A stretch of 64,000 nucleotides of DNA from Bacteroidia bacterium. Lineage in GTDB: Bacteria; Bacteroidota; Bacteroidia; UKL13-3. Shown here piece after piece: positions 3,285 to 62,426 of this stretch (position 1 is the stretch's first letter; the number at the start of each line of letters is the position of its first letter). Where the stretch lies: contig JAIBAK010000009.1 of NCBI GenBank assembly GCA_019695215.1, positions 13,389 to 77,388 of the forward strand, in the 5' to 3' direction. Under the pieces are notes generated by a model. That model did not search any database. It was given only the letters and a program-made list of their open reading frames with translations, and was not told the DNA's origin. The translations under genes were made by a program, and so were the position numbers.

Positions 3285-4043
3285 ATGAAAAAACATGCCG
3301 TAACCCTTATAGTCATGCTATTATGCCTGACTACCTCTTTTGCGCAGCAAACTACTGCAGGTATACCACAAACCGATAAAAGCGGAGTAATCCGTTTAAA
3401 GGGGAAAGCCACTCAAATGGTTATGCCTGATATTGCTGTTGTGTATTTTAATGTTACTGCCAAAGAAAAAACGGAACAGGAAACGCTTGCCAAATTAAAT
3501 ACGCAAACTCAATCACTCATCTCCCGGATGGAATCGCTGGGATTTAAGAAAGAAGAAATGAAACTGGGCAACTACCAGATTTATGAAAACTACACGTACG
3601 AAGGCGGCAAGCAAAAAAGGTCTGGGTATATTGCCAGCAACAGCATTATCCTGAAATTCAAATTCGATAAGGAAAAACTAAGCAACCTTTTTGGCAAAAT
3701 TATGGGCGAAAAATCGGAAAATATTTCGGTGAATTTCTCTACCGAAGTATCGAAAGAACTTCAGCAGAAAACAAGTACACAACTGGTGCGCGAAGCCATT
3801 AAAGACGCCAGTATACGCGCTAAAACCATTGCCGAAGTAGCTGACCTGCGCATAGTGATGATTAAAGAAGTAAACTACCAGGTTTTCAATTTCAGGCCTG
3901 TGCCGATGCTAGAGAAAGCTTACTCTTTCGCAGAAGCGGATGTGACGGCAGCCGCTCCGGCATTTTCAAACGTGGATGTACAGGAAATAGAACTAAGCGA
4001 AGAGGTAGAAATCACATTTCAGGTAGAAAATCTGATGAAGTAA
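3285..4043 (+). CDS. SIMPL/DUF541 domain secreted protein (YggE-like)
   Basis: Signal peptide MKKHAVTLIVMLLCLTTSFAQQ followed by IRLKGKATQMVMPDIAVVYFNVTAK, a SIMPL-like pattern. Size about 250 aa. Confidence 0.45.
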   Translation: MKKHAVTLIVMLLCLTTSFAQQTTAGIPQTDKSGVIRLKGKATQMVMPDIAVVYFNVTAKEKTEQETLAKLNTQTQSLISRMESLGFKKEEMKLGNYQIYENYTYEGGKQKRSGYIASNSIILKFKFDKEKLSNLFGKIMGEKSENISVNFSTEVSKELQQKTSTQLVREAIKDASIRAKTIAEVADLRIVMIKEVNYQVFNFRPVPMLEKAYSFAEADVTAAAPAFSNVDVQEIELSEEVEITFQVENLMK

Positions 4044-4063
4044 TTCTATTTATCTATACCGAT

Positions 4064-4097
4064 AAAAAAGGCAGCCTATCGCTGCCTTTTTTATTTT
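4064..4097. terminator. bidirectional rho-independent terminator between convergent genes
   Basis: A-run, stem GGCAGC (4070-4075), loop CTATC, stem GCTGCC (4081-4086), then T-run TTTTTTATTTT (4087-4097), flanked by an A-run on the other side. Confidence 0.5.
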
Positions 4098-4848
4098 ATT
4101 CCCCACTTAGGATTCCTCCCAGTAAACCGCCCACACCGCGGCTTTGCTCTTTTCCTCCAGCCGAGGCTGCCAGAATGCGGTCAGCAAGGCGCGAAAACGG
4201 AACGCTCTGTAAGTACACGATTCCAGGACCCGTAACTACTGCATAAAACAATCCTTCGCCTCCAAATAAGGAATTGCGGAAACCTCCGATAAATTTAATA
4301 TCGTAATCAATGCTGCTGGTAAATGCTACCAAACATCCTGTATCCACCCGCAGGGTTTCCCCATGTTTCAGCTCACGTCTTATGATGGTCCCGCCTGCAT
4401 GTACAAAAGCTTTTCCATCACCCCGCAAGCGCTGAAGAATAAATCCTTCGCCACCAAATAAACCTGCACCTATTCGTTTGGTAAAGGCGATATCAATTTC
4501 AATTCCTTCGGCTGCGCATAAAAAACCATCTTTCTGACAGAGAATTTCGCCACCATACTGTTTTAAATCAAAAGGAATAATTTTTCCCGGATAAGGTGCT
4601 GCAAAAGCCACTTTACTTTTTCCGACACCCTGATTTAAAAATGAAGTGATGAAAAAACTTTCCCCGGTAAACATGCGTTTCAACCCGCTGAAAACTCCTC
4701 CGGTAGAGGTTTGCATTTGAATACCATTTTCCATATACAGCATAGCTCCCGCTTCGGCCCTTACTGCTTCCTGCGGGTCAAGTTCAATTTCTACTACCTG
4801 AATATCGTCACCGATAATGTTGTAATCAATTTCATGTGCAATGCCCAT
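4096..4848 (-). CDS. TIGR00266/AIM24 family protein (DUF124)
   Basis: Gly-rich repetitive beta-structure motifs: [62 protein letters not shown] and [22 protein letters not shown]. Confidence 0.55.
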
Positions 4849-50540: not shown

Positions 50541-50647
50541 ATGCGCTTATCCTAATCTTTATTAGCCTTAGGTTCACGGCAAATCTAACCTATAGCTTAA
50601 AAAGATGGAAATCACTTTCCGTGTTTTACCAAAAATAAATACTTTTG

Positions 50648-50750
50648 CGCCCGGGTAGGCGTCATACGACCAGCTCCCTTTGAACTCCCCCAGGCCTTGA
50701 CCGGAGCAAGGGCAAAAGGTTGTAGCGGTGCGATATGATGGCCGCCCTTT
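50648..50750 (+). ncRNA. candidate approximately 105-nt structured small RNA (weak small-SRP-like resemblance) in the divergent intergenic region
   Basis: The 5' GGGUAGGCGUCAUA can pair with the 3' UAUGAUGGCCGCCC (12 of 14 pairs). An internal hairpin CCUUG-ACCGGAG-CAAGG is present. The segment CCAGGCCUUGACCGGAGCAAGGGCAAAAGG loosely resembles the SRP domain-IV region. A U-run follows at 50748-50754. Strand is uncertain. Confidence 0.25.
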
Positions 50751-50856
50751 TTTGTTTATCAGCTCATTACAAAACGGTGAGTTGTTTGTGTACAAGTTGA
50801 CGGGTGCATAATCAACCTCCCCCTTATTTTTGATACCATACCAGAAAGCACATACC

Positions 50857-53782: not shown

Positions 53783-54460
53783 TCAGAGAATCACATATCC
53801 CTTCTGGATGGCGTAAATTACTAAGCCGGCTGTATTTCTCGATTTGGTTTTAGCAAGCATTTTCATACGGTAATTCTCAATTGTTTTAGCACTTAATGAA
53901 AGGATGTCGCCAATTTCCTGTGTGGTATGCTCCTTACATATTAGTTCTAAAATGCTTATTTCCGTTTTGTTTAAATCAGGCGCATCGGCCACAGGAAGTG
54001 AAAATACCGGATGATTATTATTCACTAGTTTTTTGAAGAGAGTCACCGATAAATTATCAGCGAAATAATACTCTCCGGAGTTTACTATTTGAATAGCTTT
54101 AATAATTTCTTCGGGGTCGGCATCTTTTAAAATATATCCTCTGGCTCCGGCATCAAACATTTTTGAAACATACAGCTCCTGATTGGAAACAGACAATGCA
54201 ATAACCCGTGCATCAGGGAAAGCCTGCGTTAGTTGTTTTGTAGTACTTATCCCGTCCAATTTCGGCATATTAATGTCCATTAAAAAAATATCAGGACGTA
54301 CTCTGGGATAATTTAACAAAAGCTCTTCCCCGTTATCCGATTCAAGTACAATTTCAAAATCGGGGCAAACAGACAAAGCTGTTTTCAAACCTTCTCTGAA
54401 AATTTTATGATCGTCAGTAATTGAAATTTTAATTTTATCCATGCATTTAGTTTTCTTCAT
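53783..54460 (-). CDS. NarL/FixJ-type response regulator (receiver plus LuxR HTH)
   Basis: ISITDDH, IFLMDINMP, C-terminal HTH LTKTEISILELICKEHTTQEIGDILSLSAKTIENYRMKML. Confidence 0.85.
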   Translation of the reverse strand: MKKTKCMDKIKISITDDHKIFREGLKTALSVCPDFEIVLESDNGEELLLNYPRVRPDIFLMDINMPKLDGISTTKQLTQAFPDARVIALSVSNQELYVSKMFDAGARGYILKDADPEEIIKAIQIVNSGEYYFADNLSVTLFKKLVNNNHPVFSLPVADAPDLNKTEISILELICKEHTTQEIGDILSLSAKTIENYRMKMLAKTKSRNTAGLVIYAIQKGYVIL

Positions 54461-55265
54461 TCAGTTTCTGTTCTGGGGCCACTCGTATTTCCACTCTCAG
54501 CCCGTTTCCGGGTGATGAAATCCAATCAATACTTCCGCCTATCATTTGCACCCTGCTCTCAATATTCCGTAACCCCAAACCTTTCTTTTTGCCGCCCGTT
54601 GCAAAGTCTTTCGGATTAAATCCTGTTCCGTTATCCTCATAGGTATAAATTAAACCGGCATCAGAAACAGTTACTCCTAATTTAATTTTTGTTGCTGAAG
54701 CATATTTTATGGTATTATTAACCAGCTCCTGACTTATTCTGAACAATGCCAGTTCCGCTTCGGCCGGTATGGCGGCCTCACCTGCCTCATAAAAAAATGT
54801 AGTTTCCGTTGTGTTGCTTTCAAAATTACTGAGCAATTGAGCCAGCGCTTCTTTTAATCCAAAATCGAGCAATACTCCCGGCAACAGGCTGTGCGAAATG
54901 GAACGTACTTCTTGTATAGACTGTGTTGTGAGGGTTAAGCTCTGAGCAACCATAGAATCGATTTCTTCCTGATTTTTATTTGCCCGCTTTATTCCGTTAA
55001 TATTTAACTTAATTGCCGAAAGCATTTGGCCAACACTATCGTGTAACTCCCGTGCAAAATACTGCCGCTCCTTTTCCTGAGTATTAATTATAGCATTTAG
55101 TAATTCCTGCTGCCGCTCAATCTCCATTTGCTTTAGCATAAGCTTATAACTCTCCTTACGCTTTAAATACAAAACAACAAACGAAACAATGAATCCAATA
55201 AGGATAATCATTAACAAGGTTCCCCCAATAACGAAATAACTTATCGAATTGATTTTTTCAGACAT
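54447..55265 (-). CDS. sensor histidine kinase (HisKA_3 plus HATPase_c) with single N-terminal TM
   Basis: RELHDSVGQMLSAIKL (H-box), NTIKYASAT (N-box), GTGFNP, GLGLRNIESR (G-boxes). Confidence 0.8.
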   Translation of the reverse strand: MSEKINSISYFVIGGTLLMIILIGFIVSFVVLYLKRKESYKLMLKQMEIERQQELLNAIINTQEKERQYFARELHDSVGQMLSAIKLNINGIKRANKNQEEIDSMVAQSLTLTTQSIQEVRSISHSLLPGVLLDFGLKEALAQLLSNFESNTTETTFFYEAGEAAIPAEAELALFRISQELVNNTIKYASATKIKLGVTVSDAGLIYTYEDNGTGFNPKDFATGGKKKGLGLRNIESRVQMIGGSIDWISSPGNGLRVEIRVAPEQKLNEEN

Positions 55266-55870
55266 AAAAAAGCTGCCCCAAAAATTATATTGGTAAAAAT
55301 GTTAACTAACCCATGAAATGAATACAATTCTATTGGTAATTTCCTAACATACTTAGAGTAGTCATAGAATGAAAAAATAAAAAAATTAACCGAAAAGTAA
55401 ATGAATACTCCAGTAATAATCAGTGAATCACTTCGAAATAGCCCAAAATTATCCTGCTCTAATAACTTATATATGGTAAGCCCACTCCAAAAACACAACC
55501 ATATACATAAAATAGAAATGGGAATAGAATAAAAACGCATGATATTATCCCCCGTCATGGAATAGCAAATAGAAAAAAAACAAAAGAGAATTATGCCTAA
55601 ATACTGAATCTTATTAATAAATGGCTCCCACTTGTAAAATTCTGAAAAAAGATATGTATAAATAATAAAATCCATTAGACTATGTGCCTGAATAATAAAT
55701 AAATTATTTGTACGTGTGGCTGCCAAAACCAACGACCAGAATTCAGTAAACACGGTGACAATACAAAAAATAAAAAATGCCCTGTAGGGTGCATTTAGTT
55801 TGCGCACTACAACCAGCCCGCAAACGGCAGGTATAAGGGAAGAATAAATGGTCAATATGCCAATTGACAC
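55241..55870 (-). CDS. polytopic membrane protein (about 6 TM), probable separate sensor module of the downstream kinase
   Basis: Entirely hydrophobic helices. Its 3' end overlaps the kinase start. Confidence 0.45.
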   Translation of the reverse strand: MSIGILTIYSSLIPAVCGLVVVRKLNAPYRAFFIFCIVTVFTEFWSLVLAATRTNNLFIIQAHSLMDFIIYTYLFSEFYKWEPFINKIQYLGIILFCFFSICYSMTGDNIMRFYSIPISILCIWLCFWSGLTIYKLLEQDNFGLFRSDSLIITGVFIYFSVNFFIFSFYDYSKYVRKLPIELYSFHGLVNIFTNIIFGAAFLCLKKSIR

Positions 55871-56184
55871 TAGCTATTTAATGGATTATTAACGCTACAA
55901 TTAGTAGGACATGGTAAGCCAAAATCGGCTATTACCCCGCGTGTCATATCATTTTCTGAAGAATCGGCACCCACAAATACCAAGGTTGGCTGATTAGTAG
56001 TATCATTAAAAGCGTAGTAAACTCTGATGCCCATACAATCGGGCTGAGCCAGAATTTGATTTAATAAATCGCGGCCCATAAAAATCGCATTGACTGCATC
56101 CTGACCTTTTGCCCGGTAATTGGCGGTTAATGTGGCTGCTTCGTTTAGGGTGATGGCCGAACCCTCTGTTCCGTTAAATGGCAT
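55870..56184 (-). CDS. hypothetical 104-aa soluble protein, first gene of the two-component operon
   Basis: ATG at 56184 (MPFNGTEGSAITLNEAATL ...). The upstream part of the ORF-track entry runs over the repeat hairpins and is probably not translated. Confidence 0.35.
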   Translation of the reverse strand: MPFNGTEGSAITLNEAATLTANYRAKGQDAVNAIFMGRDLLNQILAQPDCMGIRVYYAFNDTTNQPTLVFVGADSSENDMTRGVIADFGLPCPTNCSVNNPLNS

Positions 56185-56244
56185 ACTAGTTATTTGGTTT
56201 AATGTTAAAAATAGCTTCCCTGATTCAGATATCTTCTGAAAAAA

Positions 56245-56283
56245 AGAGGGTTTTCCCTCTATAAAAAAGAGGGTTTTCCCTCT
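56245..56283. repeat. two tandem copies of palindromic element AGAGGGTTTTCCCTCT (third copy at 58952-58965)
   Basis: 56245-56260 and 56268-56283 are identical 16-mers, each a GAGGG-TTTT-CCCTC hairpin. 58952-58965 carries the same core with the same TTGT extension. Confidence 0.5.
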
Positions 56284-56553
56284 TGTGCTTATAGAAGCGT
56301 TCGCTCTAATTTTACATCCAAAAAATACCTGAACTATGAGGGCCCTATTTCTAGTTTGATCAGATTGATCCATCGCAGGTGTCGTTGCATCCCCCTAAAA
56401 TCTCTGACACTTTGCGGTGGGTCGGTTTGATTCTGTCAAATATACATAAAGCACCTCAAATGGTAAAAAGACGAAATTCTAATTTATGATAATGCGTTGA
56501 AACTAAATTTATTTATCCCGGGCAATCGAATAAATCGGATAGCCCACTTTTCA

Positions 56554-56570
56554 CCCTTTAGGGTAAATAC
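56554..56570. promoter_or_regulatory. ACCCTTTAGGGTAAATA motif immediately upstream of ATG 56575 (second copy ACCCTAAAGGGTAAATA at 58921-58937)
   Basis: A 12-bp near-palindrome ACCCTnnAGGGT plus TAAATA occurs exactly twice in the window, each time ahead of one sub-operon of the 56.5-62.4 kb cluster. Confidence 0.35.
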
Positions 56571-56716
56571 GCAAATGAAAAAGAAAAAACAGACAGGGAA
56601 AAAAGAAACCACTAAACAAAAAAAAGAGAAGAAATCTTTTTTAAAGACCTACTTACAATCGGTAATGATTAATTTTGAAGAAGGATATCGTTATATCGAA
56701 ACAATCAAACAACCCG

Positions 56717-57415
56717 ATGCAGGCACAAATAAATAATCAGGCTTCGTTTATTCAATTACCCGGCCTCATAAATAACCACTTTCTGACTGAAATTGATAAG
56801 CTGCTTGAAAATGCCAGTTTTATTGACGGGCAGGCAACCGCCACCATGGGCGCTAAAATGGTTAAGAATAATCTTCAGGCAAACCCTGCCCAACAGGAGT
56901 TAATGCAACATTTACAGTATTACATACTTCAGGCTTTTAACCAATCGGGCCTGTTTCAAAATGCTACTTTGCCAAAACAAATTTACGCCCCGGTTTTCAG
57001 TCGCTATTCCCCCGGAATGTACTATGGCTGGCATGTAGATAGCCCGGTAATGGGCCATCCTGCCGTGCGTACCGATATTGCCATGACTATCTTTTTGGAA
57101 GACCCTGATCAATACGAAGGAGGCGAACTTGAAATACAAACTGAAAATGGAACAGTAAAAATTAAACTGAATAAAGGAGATGCCGTTTGTTACCCGTGTC
57201 ACTACCTGCACCGCGTATGCGAGGTAACCAGTGGTACACGGAAAGTAGCCGTTACCTGGATTCAAAGCATGATAAAAAGTCCCGAACAGCGCAATATTCT
57301 TTTCCGGCTTAAAGAACTTCACACGCGTTTATTTGAAAAAGATGCTCAGTCGCCCGAAGCCAATGAATTGCTGCAAACCTATAGCAACCTGCTACGGATG
57401 TGGGCCGAAATATAA
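56717..57415 (+). CDS. Fe(II)/2-oxoglutarate-dependent oxygenase (PKHD-type hydroxylase, YbiX/PiuC-like)
   Basis: GQATA ... YSPGMYYGWHVDS gives an HxD facial triad; EGGELEI; distal RKVAVTWIQS. The ORF-track start at 56675 is possible; 56717 gives a YbiX-like length. Confidence 0.65.
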   Translation: MQAQINNQASFIQLPGLINNHFLTEIDKLLENASFIDGQATATMGAKMVKNNLQANPAQQELMQHLQYYILQAFNQSGLFQNATLPKQIYAPVFSRYSPGMYYGWHVDSPVMGHPAVRTDIAMTIFLEDPDQYEGGELEIQTENGTVKIKLNKGDAVCYPCHYLHRVCEVTSGTRKVAVTWIQSMIKSPEQRNILFRLKELHTRLFEKDAQSPEANELLQTYSNLLRMWAEI

Positions 57416-57990
57416 TAGACTCAGCAATGATTGACTTCTATAAATTTCCCTTCACTTTTAATATAAGTGAAACCCGAAAATTAGTACTTGAACTACCTTC
57501 AAACACCTGGATCCCTCATTACAACAAAAACGATTATGAAGGAGACTGGAGTGTAATTGCCCTGCGCTCGGGGTGGGGACATGAATCCAACATTTACTCT
57601 GTGCCTATGCCCGCTCATTCTTTTCAGGATACGCCTGTCATGAGCCAATTTTCTGATGTACAAAAAATATTAGAACGGCTTAAATGCGATAAAACATCGG
57701 TGAGGTTTATGAAATTGAGTAAGGGTGCCGATATAAAAGAACACTGTGACGACAACTTAGATGCTGAAACCTCGGGTGAAGCCCGACTGCATATTCCAAT
57801 ACAAACGCATAATGATGTTGCCTTTTATTTGAATAAACAACTCGTTAAAATGAAAGAGGGCGAATGCTGGTATCTTAATTTTAATTTGCCGCACAGCGTG
57901 GCAAATCCCGGACCGCTTGACCGCATACATCTGGTAATTGATTGCGTGGTGAACGATTGGTTAAGGCAACTGCTCTTTCATTCTGCCTGA
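57400..57990 (+). CDS. aspartyl/asparaginyl beta-hydroxylase-family cupin (AspH/LpxO/OlsC-like, no TM)
   Basis: RLHIPIQTHNDVAFYLNKQLVKMKEGECWYLNFNLPHSVANPGPLDRIHLVIDC matches the Asp_Arg_Hydrox core. An alternative start is ATG 57427. Confidence 0.6.
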   Translation: MGRNIIDSAMIDFYKFPFTFNISETRKLVLELPSNTWIPHYNKNDYEGDWSVIALRSGWGHESNIYSVPMPAHSFQDTPVMSQFSDVQKILERLKCDKTSVRFMKLSKGADIKEHCDDNLDAETSGEARLHIPIQTHNDVAFYLNKQLVKMKEGECWYLNFNLPHSVANPGPLDRIHLVIDCVVNDWLRQLLFHSA

Positions 57991-57992
57991 CC

Positions 57993-58928
57993 ATGCCAGT
58001 ATTTCCGTTACGGCCGGTTCTGGTTGCCGATCAAATTTATTTTTCGCCAGTTGAACTCAATGAAGATGCCTTTGGTGAACCGTTTTTTGATGATTGTTTA
58101 AAAACTACTCCTGTTAACGAAAAGTGCGACTTAGATACCTGCGAAGTTCCTCTTCACATCATCGAACCCGAAGCATTTATTTTTCATCTTTCCCATTGTG
58201 GTTCCACCCTGATGGCCCAATCACTGGCCGCCATAAACAGCCACCGGGTAATAAGCGAACCTGAAATAATTAATACCATTTTTTTATCTAAGGTATTTAA
58301 TAACGACCCTGACGAAAAATGTATTAACCGGCTGCGTTTAGCCATTCGCTTACTGCTGCAACCCGTTAATGCGAATGAAAAACATGCTTTTATTAAATTC
58401 ACCTCCTGGAATATTTTTCATGCTGAGTTAATAAGAAAAGCGTTTCCCGAAACTCGGTTTATATATATACACCGGGAGCCTGCCGAAGTTATCGCATCAC
58501 TTAAAAAAGATCCGAATGGTTTTGCTCAATGGAATAAACATGCTGCACCTGTACTTGCATCCCGGTATTTAAAAAAATCGGCTGATGAAATTTACCGGCT
58601 TACCACTGATGAATACCTTGGTGAAATGCTTTTGCTGCATATGCATCATGCGCTTCATTCATTGCCCGCGCATACTGGTTATCTCATTTTTCCGGATTGG
58701 ATAAAACAATTCCCCGATAACATTTTTAACGATTCCGCGCGCCTAACAGTCATTCGCAAAAAAATGACTCAACGCCTTTTATTCAATGCCAAAAAACCTG
58801 CTGAAAAATTTAATAAGTCCGGTGAACCAGCTGAAAAAATACTACTAAGCAATTCATTACGGATAAAAATACAGGAAATTCATCTTCGTATATTAGACCG
58901 TACAAGCAATAAAATTGGTTCAAAATAA
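57993..58928 (+). CDS. sulfotransferase-like protein (P-loop-like 5'-PSB HLSHCGSTL)
   Basis: Start ATG 57993 (MPVFPLRP), 2 nt after the upstream stop. HLSHCGSTLMAQSL and a later RFIYIHREPAEVIASL resemble PAPS-binding 5'-PSB/3'-PB elements. The family call is tentative. Confidence 0.45.
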   Translation: MPVFPLRPVLVADQIYFSPVELNEDAFGEPFFDDCLKTTPVNEKCDLDTCEVPLHIIEPEAFIFHLSHCGSTLMAQSLAAINSHRVISEPEIINTIFLSKVFNNDPDEKCINRLRLAIRLLLQPVNANEKHAFIKFTSWNIFHAELIRKAFPETRFIYIHREPAEVIASLKKDPNGFAQWNKHAAPVLASRYLKKSADEIYRLTTDEYLGEMLLLHMHHALHSLPAHTGYLIFPDWIKQFPDNIFNDSARLTVIRKKMTQRLLFNAKKPAEKFNKSGEPAEKILLSNSLRIKIQEIHLRILDRTSNKIGSK

Positions 58929-59056
58929 TTACCCTAAAGGGTAAATATTTTTAAAAAAAATGAGGGTTTTCCCTCTTGTTTTAAAACAAACAAAATCGGT
59001 TTTTTACAAAACTGATATCTGAAAAAATAAAATTTAAACCAAAGCAAAAACAAAAA

Positions 59057-59587
59057 ATGACCGCCAACCCAATAACCGGCCAACAGCCATTTACCAATGA
59101 AATGGCGAAAAAAATGATTGACTTTGTAAGGAGCCTTGGTATTGAAGTAAAACATGCAAGCGTTCCCGACAATCCGCTTATCCCCGGTATTCGGGTGCAG
59201 CATGGTGTAATGCTCATTGATGAAAATAATCTTACTTATCCGGGAGATATTTTATATCAGGCAGGTCGCATGGCCATTCTTCCGGCAGGCGAACGTGCTT
59301 CATATAACGGAGAAGATCATCCGGATAAAACAACTGAAGCCGCACAGGCCATGACGGCTATGTGCTGGTCGTGGGCCGCACTTACTCATTTGCAAATTGC
59401 ACCTGAAGTAGTATTTCACAACGGAGGATATAAAGGACAATCCATGCAAATAATTCATGGATATCAAAGCGGGGCCTATATGGGGCTTCCTATTATGCAA
59501 ATGTATGAGATGGCCTATGAACCGCATCAGGCAGCGGCTAAAGGATTAAACCCTTTTCCCTACATGTACAAATGGATTAACAGCTAA
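59057..59587 (+). CDS. hypothetical 176-aa protein preceding the tail-collar triplet
   Basis: Intact ORF with ATG start; no family recognised. Confidence 0.45.
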   Translation: MTANPITGQQPFTNEMAKKMIDFVRSLGIEVKHASVPDNPLIPGIRVQHGVMLIDENNLTYPGDILYQAGRMAILPAGERASYNGEDHPDKTTEAAQAMTAMCWSWAALTHLQIAPEVVFHNGGYKGQSMQIIHGYQSGAYMGLPIMQMYEMAYEPHQAAAKGLNPFPYMYKWINS

Positions 59588-61508: not shown

Positions 61509-62426
61509 ATGAAAATTTCGGTTTTATGTAACAGTCGCCTGGCTATTCCGGCCATTCAACAGTTAGCCCTTTCGGGTGAACTGAAGGGAGTAGGTGTTCC
61601 CGATCGTGCTCATGAAGATAATGAGGAAATCTCTTATGTGTGCAACCGGCTAAATATTCCTGTTCACACCCTTCAGCATACCGGTTTAGAAACAAATCTG
61701 GTCGAATGGATCAAGAAATGGAATCCGGATGTGGTGCTGGTATTTACCTTTCCCTATAAAATTCCTGAAACGGTTTTACCAATTCCCGATTACGGATTCA
61801 TTAATTTTCATTTTGGGTTATTACCCGCTTACAGAGGTTCGGATGCCATTTTCTGGCAAATAAAAAACCGGGAACCCATGGGCGGTATCAGCGTGCACCA
61901 AATGACCGGTGAACTGGACCGAGGGCCCATTTATTTTATTCAAAAAGTTGCGATTGTTCCCGATGACACTTATGGCTCTCACAGCAACGCTTTAAGTTTT
62001 GCCGGTGCAGGTGCCGTGTCAAACTTGCTTTTGATGCTTAAACAGGGCAAACAAGCCACTGCTCAAAACGAACAGGAGGCATATTATTACCACCGCCCCA
62101 CGCTGGAAGATGTGATGATAGACTGGACTAAACCCGCTGATGACATCATCGCTTTAATTAACGCCTGCAACCCATGGAATAAGGGAGCGTTTACTATCCA
62201 AAATAACACTCCAGCAAAAATTATTCATGCATATAAAATAACATATGAAGAAAAACACCATTTACCAGGGTTTATAAAAAGTATCACCGATAAAGGACTT
62301 TTGGTTTGTTGTAGCAAAAATGATCACTTGCTTATACAAACCATTTTTGTTAATAATGAATTTTTGAATAGTTGCCGATTTCAAAAGACTAGTTGGAAAG
62401 AGGGTTTTTGTTTCTATAATCCTTAA
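61509..62426 (+). CDS. formyltransferase-family protein (Fmt/ArnA-N-like), last gene of the cluster
   Basis: GFINFHFGLLPAYRGSDAIFWQIKN carries the formyltransferase SLLP/HxSLLPxxRG-type motif with the catalytic His; a C-terminal Fmt-C-like domain follows. This is distinct from the bona fide fmt at 2336. Confidence 0.7.
   Translation: MKISVLCNSRLAIPAIQQLALSGELKGVGVPDRAHEDNEEISYVCNRLNIPVHTLQHTGLETNLVEWIKKWNPDVVLVFTFPYKIPETVLPIPDYGFINFHFGLLPAYRGSDAIFWQIKNREPMGGISVHQMTGELDRGPIYFIQKVAIVPDDTYGSHSNALSFAGAGAVSNLLLMLKQGKQATAQNEQEAYYYHRPTLEDVMIDWTKPADDIIALINACNPWNKGAFTIQNNTPAKIIHAYKITYEEKHHLPGFIKSITDKGLLVCCSKNDHLLIQTIFVNNEFLNSCRFQKTSWKEGFCFYNP

Follow-up and report, generated by a model that had tools for sequence, protein, structure and literature searches.

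The window, that is, the whole stretch of 64,000 nucleotides analysed, contains a gene cluster in which a minus-strand operon for a two-component system (104-aa protein, membrane protein, kinase and regulator) diverges from a plus-strand operon of oxygenase, hydroxylase and sulfotransferase genes. The intergenic space between them is referred to as region A. Region B lies after the sulfotransferase gene and ahead of a second plus-strand operon for a 176-aa protein, tail-collar-domain proteins and a formyltransferase. Two families of short palindromes, family 1 (GAGGGTTTTCCCTC) and family 2 (ACCCTWWAGGGTAAATA), are found in this cluster and are collected with the neighbouring features in Table 1. 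The first-pass annotation had named both families as probable operator sites of a common regulator and/or small hairpins; all of its motifs are present, but three of its coordinates were 10 nt too low.

Table 1. Genes, palindromic motifs and predicted promoter elements of the cluster (window coordinates).
Feature	Position	Strand	Remarks
NarL/FixJ-family response regulator	53783–54460	−	Pfam matches PF00072 and PF00196; receiver and GerE/LuxR helix-turn-helix
HisKA_3 histidine kinase	54447–55265	−	Pfam matches PF07730 and PF02518; partner of the regulator
209-aa polytopic membrane protein	55241–55870	−	no family match
104-aa protein, first gene of the module	55870–56184	−	start ATG 56184; orthologs 102–107 aa
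Predicted −7 box TATTTTTA	56206–56213	−	104-aa/membrane/kinase/regulator operon; read from sequence
Family-1 site A-distal	56246–56259	.	centre 56252.5
Family-1 site A-proximal	56269–56282	.	centre 56275.5; 23 bp from A-distal
Predicted −33 TTG, oxygenase operon	56283–56285	+	abuts A-proximal (CCCTCTTG); read from sequence
Predicted −7 box TAATTTTA	56307–56314	+	21 nt after TTG; consensus TAnnTTTG
Family-2 copy a ACCCTTTAGGGTAAATA	56553–56569	+	hairpin (T)CACCC-TTTA-GGGTAA plus ATA
Family-2 copy b ACCCTAAAGGGTAAATA	58931–58947	+	hairpin TTACCC-TAAA-GGGTAA, then ATATTTTT
Family-1 site B	58962–58975	.	centre 58968.5; single copy in the window
Predicted −33 TTG, 176-aa/collar operon	58976–58978	+	abuts site B
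−7-like box GTTTTTTA	58999–59006	+	aligned with TACTTTTA of orthologs; weak match in the window lineage

The closest solved relatives of the regulator are VraR, NarL and DevR, and its homology to 1a04 is full-length (E = 7e-27). It is a NarL/FixJ-family protein encoded together with its putative regulon, and by Pfam it is the only protein of the module with a recognisable DNA-binding domain. Its recognition helix, SAKTIENYRMKM, carries a KT[VI]ExYR signature, which is also found in regulators neighbouring motif arrays elsewhere (see below). The order of genes around the 209-aa membrane protein is kept in the related clusters L014, L017, L140 and L150 as well as in Flavobacterium (L091). A 167-aa reading frame running through the hairpins (55870–56373, start at 56373) was rejected, as the orthologs of the 104-aa protein start at the ATG equivalent of 56184. 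The 104-aa protein was also considered as a DNA binder and dismissed, its AF2 model (pLDDT 82) having no PDB fold match at E ≤ 0.001. A metagenome scan with the 104-aa family gave 4 loci only.

Family 1 occurs three times in the window and its exact common core is a 14-bp inverted heptad, GAGGGTT|TTCCCTC, i.e., an inverted repeat of two heptad half-sites in the size range of a binding unit (~14–16 bp). The extended form AGAGGGTTTTCCCTCT is found at 56245–56260 and 56268–56283, as had been described. The third copy, TGAGGGTTTTCCCTCT, differs from it in the first base and lies at 58961–58976, not at 58952–58965. A search with the 14-mer at ≤2 mismatches gave 4 matches in the 64-kb window against 0.37 expected, a number reached in 0 of 100 shuffles, and no further exact copy of GAGGGN4CCCTC was found in that window. 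A 20-codon mini-ORF overlapping the third copy had been regarded as incidental. We agree, and reject it as a gene, since its ATG reads AAG in the relative L150; its span is 58960–59022 rather than 58950–59012. Rfam returned nothing at the motifs or the leader, either over the whole window at the gathering threshold or over 56150–59100 at E ≤ 1.

To find out whether the motifs are specific to the locus or dispersed had been proposed as a check, and within the window the answer is clear: the copies of both families are confined to a 2.7-kb stretch of the cluster, and the other 61 kb has none. It is therefore most improbable that both motifs are REP- or MITE-like palindromic repeats which landed here by chance and have no regulatory role. 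Both are indeed short palindromes in intergenic DNA, their centres invert between TTTT and AAAA as in hairpin-forming repeats, and in one Bacteroidales MAG (L040, L045, L113, L122) a similar unit forms many tandem arrays at contig ends. Nevertheless, many scattered copies without a fixed relation to genes were seen neither in the 64 kb nor in the 20-kb orthologous loci, where no copy lies off a promoter. Moreover, position, copy number and phasing are kept between lineages at 65% protein identity, and the distance from the family-1 units to the promoter boxes is fixed.

The orthologous clusters were reached through protein homology and not by motif, those of L014 type having 65% protein identity to the window. 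They carry TAGGG(T4/A4)CCCTA at the same intergenic positions as family 1 in the window. In L014, L015, L017–L019, L140, L114, L012 and L147–L149, two to three AGGG-W4-CCCT units were found in the homologous intergenic regions and zero elsewhere in 20 kb, where ~0.1 would be expected. Neighbouring units are spaced by exactly 22 bp, centre to centre, in 16 of 18 pairs and by 23 bp in the other two, which belong to the window lineage; spacing by helical turns is thus seen in loci that the motif had no part in selecting. Within region A, the proximal site is intact in all relatives (L146, L150, L152, L014, L017, L140), and the distal one reads TAGGG(W4)CCCTA in L014, L017 and L140 and is partly degenerate (CCTT) in L146 and L150. 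In region B, upstream of the 176-aa/tail-collar operon, the single site of the window is matched in orthologs by two to three copies at 22-bp spacing. The L014-type clusters have an extra third array ahead of a PhyH operon, and in their 104-aa promoter in-phase half-sites lead from full sites down to the core promoter.

The unit TAGGGWW|WWCCCTA occurs 31 times in the orthologs. The outer pair is G..C in every copy of the window lineage, while it is T..A in 31 of 32 sites of the L014 lineage and C..A in the remaining one. The recognition helix likewise differs between the lineages (RMK vs RNK) at a residue that aligns, by eye, with Lys192 of NarL, a base-contacting residue (PMC10853779). As read from these sequences, the outer pair has changed in concert. 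Whether the centre is TTTT or AAAA varies from copy to copy and from ortholog to ortholog, and L017 and L019 differ in it although they are near-identical strains; the function is therefore symmetric about the dyad. Clusters with the 176-aa and collar genes that have no two-component system (L141–L145) contain zero family-1 sites. In these comparisons the presence of sites and that of the two-component system are confounded by phylogeny, the clusters without the system being also the most distant.

The "TTGT extension" described earlier is real on the second and third copies, and we interpret it as a −33 TTG promoter element. The Bacteroidetes −7 consensus is TAnnTTTG at −12 to −5 (PMC9723704), and downstream of the proximal unit the pattern N-TTG-N20/21-TAnnTTTA recurs in regions A and B of either lineage; the start sites given here are predictions from that consensus. 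As the last copy abuts the −33 TTG of a predicted Bacteroidetes −33/−7 promoter, the centre of the proximal site would fall at about −43. In region A, the implied start of the oxygenase operon is ~56319, which puts A-proximal at −43.5 and A-distal at ~−66.5. The CCCT-N-TTG arrangement of this region is kept in the window, L146, L150, L152 and L014 (TGG in L017 and L140), and the TAATTTTA box is identical in L146, L150 and L152. In region B, the same arrangement is kept in the window, L011, L150, L012, L014, L017, L140 and L114, and an anchored alignment revealed a conserved block, (T/G)(A/T)CTTTTACAAAAC. The predicted start at 59011 places the centre of site B at −42.5, the −7 box being weak in the window lineage.

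The tandem pair at 56245–56283 had been assigned to the promoter of the minus-strand two-component operon. This needs refinement, as the pair lies in a divergent region and its orientation towards the plus-strand oxygenase operon (site-TTG-N21-TAATTTTA) is no less clear. The TATTTTTA box of the minus strand is conserved in L146, L150 and L152 and implies a start at ~56201, from which the two sites would lie at ~−51.5 (A-distal) and ~−74.5. Given these non-canonical distances, direct autoregulation of the regulator operon is inferred only.

The possibility that the family-1 units are RNA hairpins, which would insulate the sub-operons as attenuators or as weak intrinsic terminators working in both directions, is unlikely to account for them. 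Like Rho-independent terminators, the units have a short G+C stem, a 4-nt loop and, in the window lineage, adjacent T-runs. Each folds at −8 to −10.7 kcal/mol, on the minus strand 7 of the 8 nt after each of the three window copies are T, the third copy has TTGTTTTA behind it on the plus strand as well and lies downstream of the sulfotransferase gene, and a terminator scan lists them. Unlike terminators, however, they are helically phased and sit on the 5′ side of operons. Copies 1 and 2 are not at the 3′ end of a transcription unit; they lie between divergent genes, as do the orthologous arrays in divergent regions, so that no gene is upstream on the strand of the T-run. The 7-T run accompanies every site of the window lineage on one strand, but it is not conserved in the L014 lineage, where many sites have 0–3 T on either side. 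Exact 22-bp phasing and a fixed distance to the TTG and −7 elements would be meaningless for RNA, the stem is invariant within a genome over 3–7 copies with no copy-by-copy co-variation, and the predicted starts place the sites upstream of the transcripts. What is left of the earlier suggestion of a weak intrinsic terminator is lineage-specific: family 1 may have a hairpin or terminator side-role in the window lineage.

Arrays of the unit were also sought by motif in species-representative genomes; the pattern used already contains AGGG/CCCT, which accounts for part of the apparent conservation across phyla. At least 120 loci were obtained against ~2–5 expected by chance, with per-genome copy numbers at least as high as those listed. 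Among the matches listed, a homolog of the regulator lies within 3.5 kb at 19 loci, and ~13 of these arrays lie immediately beside it; they come from unrelated Bacteroidota, Chlorobi and Chloroflexi. The Flavobacterium locus L091 has the same four-gene module (104-aa/membrane/kinase/regulator) with arrays on both sides. In Tenacibaculum, one regulator paralog (T1) is always found by TTAGGGTTAACCCTAA arrays and the other (T2) always by (A/C)AGGGTWWACCCT(T/G) arrays. No regulator homolog was found in 140 kb of array-free control sequence, a sample too small to fix the base rate, and the argument from enrichment rests on direct adjacency and on the pairing of paralogs with site variants. Some of the scanned arrays are plainly other things, such as 24-bp tandem repeats and one Alcaligenaceae locus.

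These data also bear on whether family 1 could be the operator of another DNA-binding protein, with its gene at some other place in the genome, or of a different product of the module, with the regulator as bystander or target. The regulator is linked to the sites by sequence comparison, most of the scanned arrays have no regulator gene in their 8-kb block among the matches listed, and the 104-aa and 209-aa proteins have no assigned function. This alternative is improbable, since in the conserved module a DNA-binding domain is recognisable in the regulator only, the 104-aa model matches no DNA-binding fold, the arrays flank homologous regulator genes in unrelated taxa, and in Tenacibaculum the paralog co-varies with the site variant. 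In addition, a 14-bp 7+7 layout with 22-bp stacking is documented for this very protein family (PMC7250471).

The documented case is BvgA of Bordetella (Pfha, Pptx and Pfim3 promoters), also a NarL/FixJ regulator, whose dimers are arranged head to head and line up on a single helical face at 22-bp intervals, the last abutting −35; its 14-bp inverted-heptad primary site, TAAGAAATTTCCTA in Pfha, may be compared with TAGGGAAAACCCTA or GAGGGTTTTCCCTC here (PMC7250471). The most downstream site thus abuts −35 in BvgA promoters and, by prediction, −33 in the present ones, and the succession of a strong upstream site and weaker in-phase sites is found likewise in the L014-type 104-aa promoter. The systems differ in the half-site (AGGA/AAGA for BvgA, AGGG here), in the host, which is a member of the Bacteroidota with a sigma-A promoter of −33 TTG and −7 TAnnTTTG instead of −35/−10, and in the kinase, where a small HisKA_3 protein and a membrane protein of its own gene take the place of BvgS. 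BvgA has been defined by experiment, whereas the present system is predicted from sequence. NarL dimers, which recognise DNA by helix α-9, are positioned at −43.5, −44.5 and −77.5 (PMC10853779); at the E. coli yeaR and ogt promoters an activator dimer at −43.5/−44.5 is likewise accompanied by a second site upstream (−77.5). NarL sites, however, are 7-2-7 (16 bp, TACYYMT heptamers) and not 7+7 (14 bp), and the sites in ogt are 33 bp apart and not 22 bp. Literature searches with the motif strings and the gene cluster gave nothing relevant, and no operator for Bacteroidota NarL-type regulators is described in the literature searched.

Taken together, these results favour the reading, to which we give a probability of roughly three in four, that family 1 serves the adjacent NarL/FixJ regulator as operator and that family 2 is a separate, lineage-specific element, the latter being the less secure part. 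The earlier proposal of operator sites for the adjacent LuxR-type regulator thus gains comparative support for family 1: position, number and 22-bp phasing are conserved, no sites are seen in clusters that lack the two-component system, and they recur beside related regulator genes in other Bacteroidota. The product of 53783–54460 is most likely the protein that binds them, and family 1 would most likely be an ordinary control element that is unusually well conserved. In the proposed mechanism, one head-to-head regulator dimer would occupy each 14-bp unit (GAGGGTT|TTCCCTC here, TAGGGWW|WWCCCTA in relatives), with units stacked two helical turns (22–23 bp) apart, so that all dimers lie along the same side of the helix. 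Nearest the promoter, a unit centred at ~−43 would abut the −33 TTG of a sigma-A promoter of Bacteroidetes type, a position resembling that of class-II activators. Once phosphorylated by the HisKA_3 kinase, the regulator would activate the oxygenase/hydroxylase/sulfotransferase operon as well as the 176-aa/tail-collar/formyltransferase operon, probably with feedback on its own operon by way of the shared divergent region. The sequence features, their conservation and phasing and the presence of the regulator beside them are observed, whereas binding by the regulator, a positive and not a negative effect on transcription, and the start sites are inferred.

Family 2 behaves differently. A search with TACCCTNNAGGGTA at ≤1 mismatch gave 2 matches against 0.06 expected. 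The coordinates reported at first (56554–56570 and 58921–58937) are replaced by those in Table 1, and the gap between copy a and ATG 56575, the start of a conserved 53-aa ORF, is 5 nt and not 4 nt. Copy b begins 2 nt after the stop codon of the sulfotransferase gene, so the two copies bracket the oxygenase–sulfotransferase block before its first start codon and after its last stop codon. The family was found only in the close lineage of the window, with an invariant stem and a variable loop. Copy a reads TTACCC-TTTT-GGGTAAACA in L150 and L152, where it is kept within otherwise diverged sequence, and copy b reads CTACCC-GAAA-GGGTAA followed by ATATTTTTTT in L150 and is absent from the L014-type orthologs. 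The idea that family 2 marks promoters or operators is not supported, as it is missing in the orthologs at 65% identity, sits at the ends of a coding block and not at predicted promoters, and is not associated with family-1 arrays elsewhere.

It is somewhat less improbable than the alternatives above, though still unlikely, that family 2 is an auxiliary DNA site of the same regulator with everted CCCT/AGGG half-sites. The pentamers ACCCT and AGGGT are common to both families, in region B copy b has its centre 32 bp, close to three turns of the helix, ahead of the family-1 site, and the 9-mer GGGTAAAYA recurs as an in-phase half-site in the 104-aa promoter of L014-type clusters. The superficial resemblance to a 7-2-7 site of NarL was also considered and rejected, TACCC-N4-GGGTA being 14 bp and not 16 bp and the inner pair being lost in L150 and L152. 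Half-sites inverted in place could not be read by the same dimer geometry, and copy a lies ~240 nt downstream of the predicted start. In L150, where the copies read ACCCG..AGGGT and ACCCT..TGGGT, the loss of the inner T/A pair leaves only a 4–5-bp stem and a free tetraloop as conserved features. Family 2 was also dismissed as a general partner of family 1, for in other lineages CCCT-N2-AGGG shows no enrichment around arrays, with 1 of 10 occurrences in 1.1 Mb of loci lying near one. Family 2 probably works at the level of RNA, as a hairpin or terminator and not as a mark of promoters, most likely as a stem-loop, TACCC-N4-GGGTA, that would act on the transcript and flank the block from the small ORF to the sulfotransferase gene. 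Terminator-like placement is seen only in copy b, a plus-strand stem-loop and T-tract right after the stop codon, and this copy is likely a weak terminator or a 3′ hairpin or stabiliser.

To our knowledge, very few transcription-factor motifs are known for Bacteroidota outside gut Bacteroides. If family 1 is the operator, the 14-bp motif together with 22-bp stacking would predict the regulon of this system, namely the oxygenase, hydroxylase and sulfotransferase genes and those for tail-collar-domain proteins, to which the relatives would add a PhyH/GH25 operon and genes for T9SS-secreted proteins. Regulons of related systems in Flavobacterium, in Tenacibaculum, a genus of fish pathogens, and in many uncultured lineages would become predictable in the same way. 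It would also mean that activators stacked in the manner of BvgA can operate on the divergent promoter type of Bacteroidetes. General concepts would be unchanged, as this is a standard type of control element. We tentatively extend the proposal, at somewhat less than even confidence, to a large undescribed HisKA_3/NarL-type subfamily of Bacteroidota and their Chlorobi/Ignavibacteria relatives, often encoded in the four-gene module. AGGG-W4-CCCT heptads every 21–23 bp could be its shared operator signature, with BvgA-style cooperative stacking on −33/−7 promoters and with the outer pair and a recognition-helix residue co-evolving by lineage. If so, the motif alone would give the regulons of many uncultured Bacteroidota from sequence.

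A search of the window sequence bore out the presence of both motif families reported in the first-pass annotation. The coordinates of its first two family-1 copies also stood, while the third family-1 copy, the second family-2 copy and a mini-ORF had each been placed 10 nt too low. The three copies of family 1, a palindrome of AGGG-W4-CCCT type arranged as an inverted heptad, share exactly the 14-mer core GAGGGTTTTCCCTC, which with up to two mismatches gives 4 matches in the window against 0.37 expected; no further exact GAGGGN4CCCTC occurs in the 64 kb. For family 2, a TACCC-N4-GGGTA hairpin, TACCCTNNAGGGTA gives 2 matches against 0.06 expected. Chance origin is dismissed for either family. 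The half-site-like string listed in the table may be chance.

Features of the cluster and its surroundings, in window coordinates
Feature	Position	Strand	Remarks
Small SRP RNA, Bacteroidales type	50646-50751	+	Rfam RF04183, 85.9 bits
Response regulator	53783-54460	-	receiver and GerE domains
209-aa membrane protein, HisKA_3 kinase		-	between 104-aa gene and response regulator
104-aa protein	55870-56184	-	first gene of module; real start ATG 56184
Family-1 copy 1	56245-56260		AGAGGGTTTTCCCTCT; core 56246-59
Family-1 copy 2	56268-56283		AGAGGGTTTTCCCTCT; core 56269-82
Long G.U-rich hairpin	56354-56441	+	inside predicted 255-nt leader
Family-2 copy a	56553-56569	+	ACCCTTTAGGGTAAATA; 5 nt ahead of first ATG of small-ORF-to-sulfotransferase block
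53-aa ORF, conserved	56575-56736	+	Lys-rich N-terminus; overlaps dioxygenase start
PKHD-type Fe(II)/2OG dioxygenase, Asp/Asn beta-hydroxylase-like protein, sulfotransferase	sulfotransferase end 58928	+	after 53-aa ORF
Family-2 copy b	58931-58947	+	ACCCTAAAGGGTAAATA; 2 nt past last stop of block (sulfotransferase)
Family-1 copy 3	58961-58976		TGAGGGTTTTCCCTCT; core 58962-75
176-aa protein, three tail-collar-domain proteins, formyltransferase			after sulfotransferase gene
Half-site-like string	62397-62415		AAAGAGGGTTTTTGTTTC; 3' end of formyltransferase gene, ~110 nt ahead of next ATG

The small SRP RNA and the closest database relatives, which are Bacteroidia MAGs, assign the organism to Bacteroidota. 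The start of the 104-aa gene was assigned from its orthologs, which measure 102-107 aa. This protein family always stands first in the two-component module and conserves a CPxxC near its C-terminus; it has no Pfam or NCBIfam match, and the AF2 model (pLDDT 82) found no fold match in the PDB. The 53-aa ORF is among the called genes of L150 and L152 and shows a weak, sub-threshold Pfam match to DUF6852; it is missing from L014-type clusters.

Orthologous clusters were found by searches with the 176-aa and 104-aa proteins, and their contigs were fetched. A close lineage (L011, L146, L150-L153) has 86-88% protein identity to the window; a second lineage (L012, L014-L019, L114, L140, L147-L149), with 55-70%, keeps the gene order and the two-component module. 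In the second lineage TAGGG(TTTT or AAAA)CCCTA occurs in exactly the two intergenic regions homologous to those of the window, namely region A, between the divergent two-component and oxygenase operons, and region B, before the 176-aa/tail-collar operon. A third region that contains it separates a PhyH/GH25 operon from a 163-179-aa gene. There are two or three copies per region, and none was found elsewhere in 20 kb (~0.1 expected). The spacing of neighbouring units is exactly 22 bp in 16 of 18 pairs and 23 bp in the other two, both from the window lineage. In L011, an 86% relative, an IS element with HTH and rve transposase genes (3525-4609) replaces the upstream oxygenase and sulfotransferase genes, and neither the family-2/family-1 pair nor the 176-aa operon promoter is disrupted by it.

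Alignment anchored on the gene-proximal family-1 copy revealed a common arrangement in both regions and both lineages: the copy is followed by one base, TTG, 20-21 nt and a TAnnTTTA-like box. Region A of the window reads CCCTC-TTG-N21-TAATTTTA and region B of L014 reads CCCTA-TTG-N20-TACTTTTA, while the region B box of the window, GTTTTTTA, is a weak match. The layout is that of a predicted Bacteroidetes sigma-A promoter (-33 TTG, -7 TAnnTTTG). As the -7 box spans -12 to -5 in the start-site map of F. psychrophilum (PMC9723704), transcription is predicted to start at ~56319 and ~59011. Relative to these starts, the centres of the proximal sites fall at -43.5 and -42.5 and that of the distal window site at -66.5. 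For the minus strand, a predicted start near 56201 puts the two sites of the window at ~-51.5 and ~-74.5, a less canonical spacing. In the L014 lineage, the half-sites AGGGAAAACATT, AATGTTTACCCT and AGGGTAAACATT extend the array at the 104-aa promoter, keeping exactly the 22-bp phase of the two full sites as far as the core promoter.

BvgA, a member of the same family as the cluster's regulator, binds as head-to-head dimers spaced by 22 bp on one helix face, the last dimer abutting the -35 element, and it binds best to the 14-bp inverted heptad TAAGAAATTTCCTA (PMC7250471). NarL activates from -43.5 at yeaR and from -44.5 plus -77.5 at ogt (PMC10853779). Judged by these geometries, family 1 follows the layout of BvgA-type activator arrays, with the difference that it is set on a Bacteroidetes promoter, and we file it as a further case of this known arrangement with putative sites. 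In the literature searched, the motif strings of family 1 and family 2 were not found in a bacterial regulatory context.

The first-pass annotation had also proposed that family 1 may act as weak intrinsic terminators or small bidirectional hairpins. Every window-lineage unit carries 7 T in 8 nt on one flank, and these T-rich flanks explain both that proposal and the matches obtained in the terminator scan. However, the units fold weakly (-8 to -10.7 kcal/mol), many units of the second lineage have only 0-3 T on either flank, and at copies 1 and 2 there is nothing to terminate because both sit between divergent genes. Moreover, the arms are identical across all copies of one genome with no copy-by-copy co-variation, and helical phasing and constant distance to the promoter boxes are meaningful for DNA only. 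The 4-bp centre switches between TTTT and AAAA among copies, among orthologs and even from L017 to L019, two near-identical strains. This implies functional symmetry of the element about its dyad, as predicted for a dimer site. At one site of these strains (L017 4367, L019 4365) the centre is wholly flipped from TTTT to AAAA, suggesting a hairpin-mediated micro-inversion and not point mutation.

The regulator is a NarL/VraR/DevR relative over its full length, and within the module it alone carries a DNA-binding domain. A motif-first scan for AGGGWWWWCCCT-N9-12-AGGGWWWWCCCT, using one genome per species, returned at least 120 loci, where by our own estimate about 2-5 are expected by chance. Among the matches listed, about 19 represent a single orthologous site of Alcaligenaceae, and unrelated tandem repeats account for some others. 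At 19 of the listed loci, mostly from Bacteroidota with a Chlorobiaceae and Chloroflexi, the window's regulator has a homolog within 3.5 kb; a HisKA_3 kinase is present at 14, and in ~13 an array (two or more family-1-like units in tandem) lies immediately beside the regulator gene. The 104-aa/membrane/kinase/regulator module recurs in Flavobacterium sp. BFFFF1 (L091), with arrays on either side, and 104-aa homologs adjoin arrays in three further listed loci. Array-adjoining regulators have the recognition-helix signature KT[VI]ExYR in common. Tenacibaculum paralog T1 has TTAGGGTTAACCCTAA arrays upstream in 2/2 loci, and paralog T2 has (A/C)AGGGTWWACCCT(T/G) arrays in 4/4. An array-free control of 140 kb contained no regulator homolog, a sample too small for a base rate; the enrichment argument rests on array-regulator adjacency and on the pairing of paralog with variant.

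In the Tenacibaculum genomes (L024, L108, L079, L123, L126, L128) each of two NarL-type paralogs has its own variant, with TTAA or TWWA centres and different flanks, and several more arrays of the matching variant occur elsewhere. At 19 Alcaligenaceae/Burkholderiales loci among the listed matches (L021, L022, L026, L033, L037, L060, L061 and others), a conserved TAGGGTAAACCCTAG-N9-TAGGGTTTACCCTATAAT overlaps a -10-like TATAAT between a UvrD/Rep-like helicase gene and a 77-aa ORF; this pair looks like a different, repressor-type operator sharing the core. In Ignavibacteria (L077 195-294, L023 3682-3737, L065 6758-6811) the array takes an extreme, iteron-like form, with the 22-bp unit GTAGGGATTTCCCTACTCATTT repeated head to tail up to six times.

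With conserved position, 22-bp phasing, array-regulator adjacency and paralog/variant pairing, comparative genomics supports well the first-pass reading of family 1 as an operator, to which we give a probability of roughly three in four. The outer pair is G..C at every window-lineage site and T..A at 31 of 32 second-lineage sites (C..A at the other), and the regulators of the two lineages differ, RMK (window lineage) versus RNK, at the by-eye equivalent of Lys192, which contacts bases in NarL (PMC10853779); this pairing, aligned by eye, is only a hint. Both motif and two-component module are absent from L141-L145 (Pedobacter, Spirosoma and others), which hold distant 176-aa/collar homologs, a correlation confounded by phylogenetic distance.

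The operator proposal was not sustained for family 2, which is confined to the close lineage (window, L001-L011, L150-L153) and missing from the 55-70% orthologs; nor is CCCT-N2-AGGG associated with arrays in other lineages. As a NarL 7-2-7 site it was rejected, since the element does not fit. Copies a and b, in direct orientation, bracket the four-gene block exactly. In the 87-88% relatives family 2 persists amid diverged flanking sequence with its stem unchanged and its loop different, reading TTACCC-TTTT-GGGTAAACA before the small ORF and CTACCC-GAAA-GGGTAAATA, then seven T, after the sulfotransferase stop. What has been conserved is thus a stem of 5-6 bp, closed by a free tetraloop and followed by an oriented 3' extension; the element always lies on the coding strand. 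Our best guess, held with low confidence, is action at the RNA level, copy b as a weak terminator or 3' stabiliser and copy a as a 5'-proximal hairpin; an auxiliary site of the regulator is a minority alternative of similarly low confidence.

Region A measures 390 bp in the window lineage versus 181 bp in the second, and the extra part is the predicted leader of the oxygenase operon, which folds at -65.9 kcal/mol (z = -3.4). Its long hairpin is strand-specific because it is G.U-rich. L146, L150 and L152 (87-88% relatives) show 100% identity in both arms, whereas the 20-nt loop has 4-5 changes; the hairpin has no counterpart in the 65%-identity orthologs, and Rfam gave no match for it. An RNase III/processing site is one possibility and a regulatory structure another. 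Combined with the family-2 hairpins that bracket the block, the leader hairpin hints that the oxygenase operon mRNA is processed post-transcriptionally.

A fourth array, on another contig of the L014 MAG (L078 7479-7512), adjoins genes for proteins with T9SS C-terminal sorting domains; given this array, the regulon may reach past the cluster. Family 1 would be an ordinary type of control site, yet one that is sharply defined and widely conserved.
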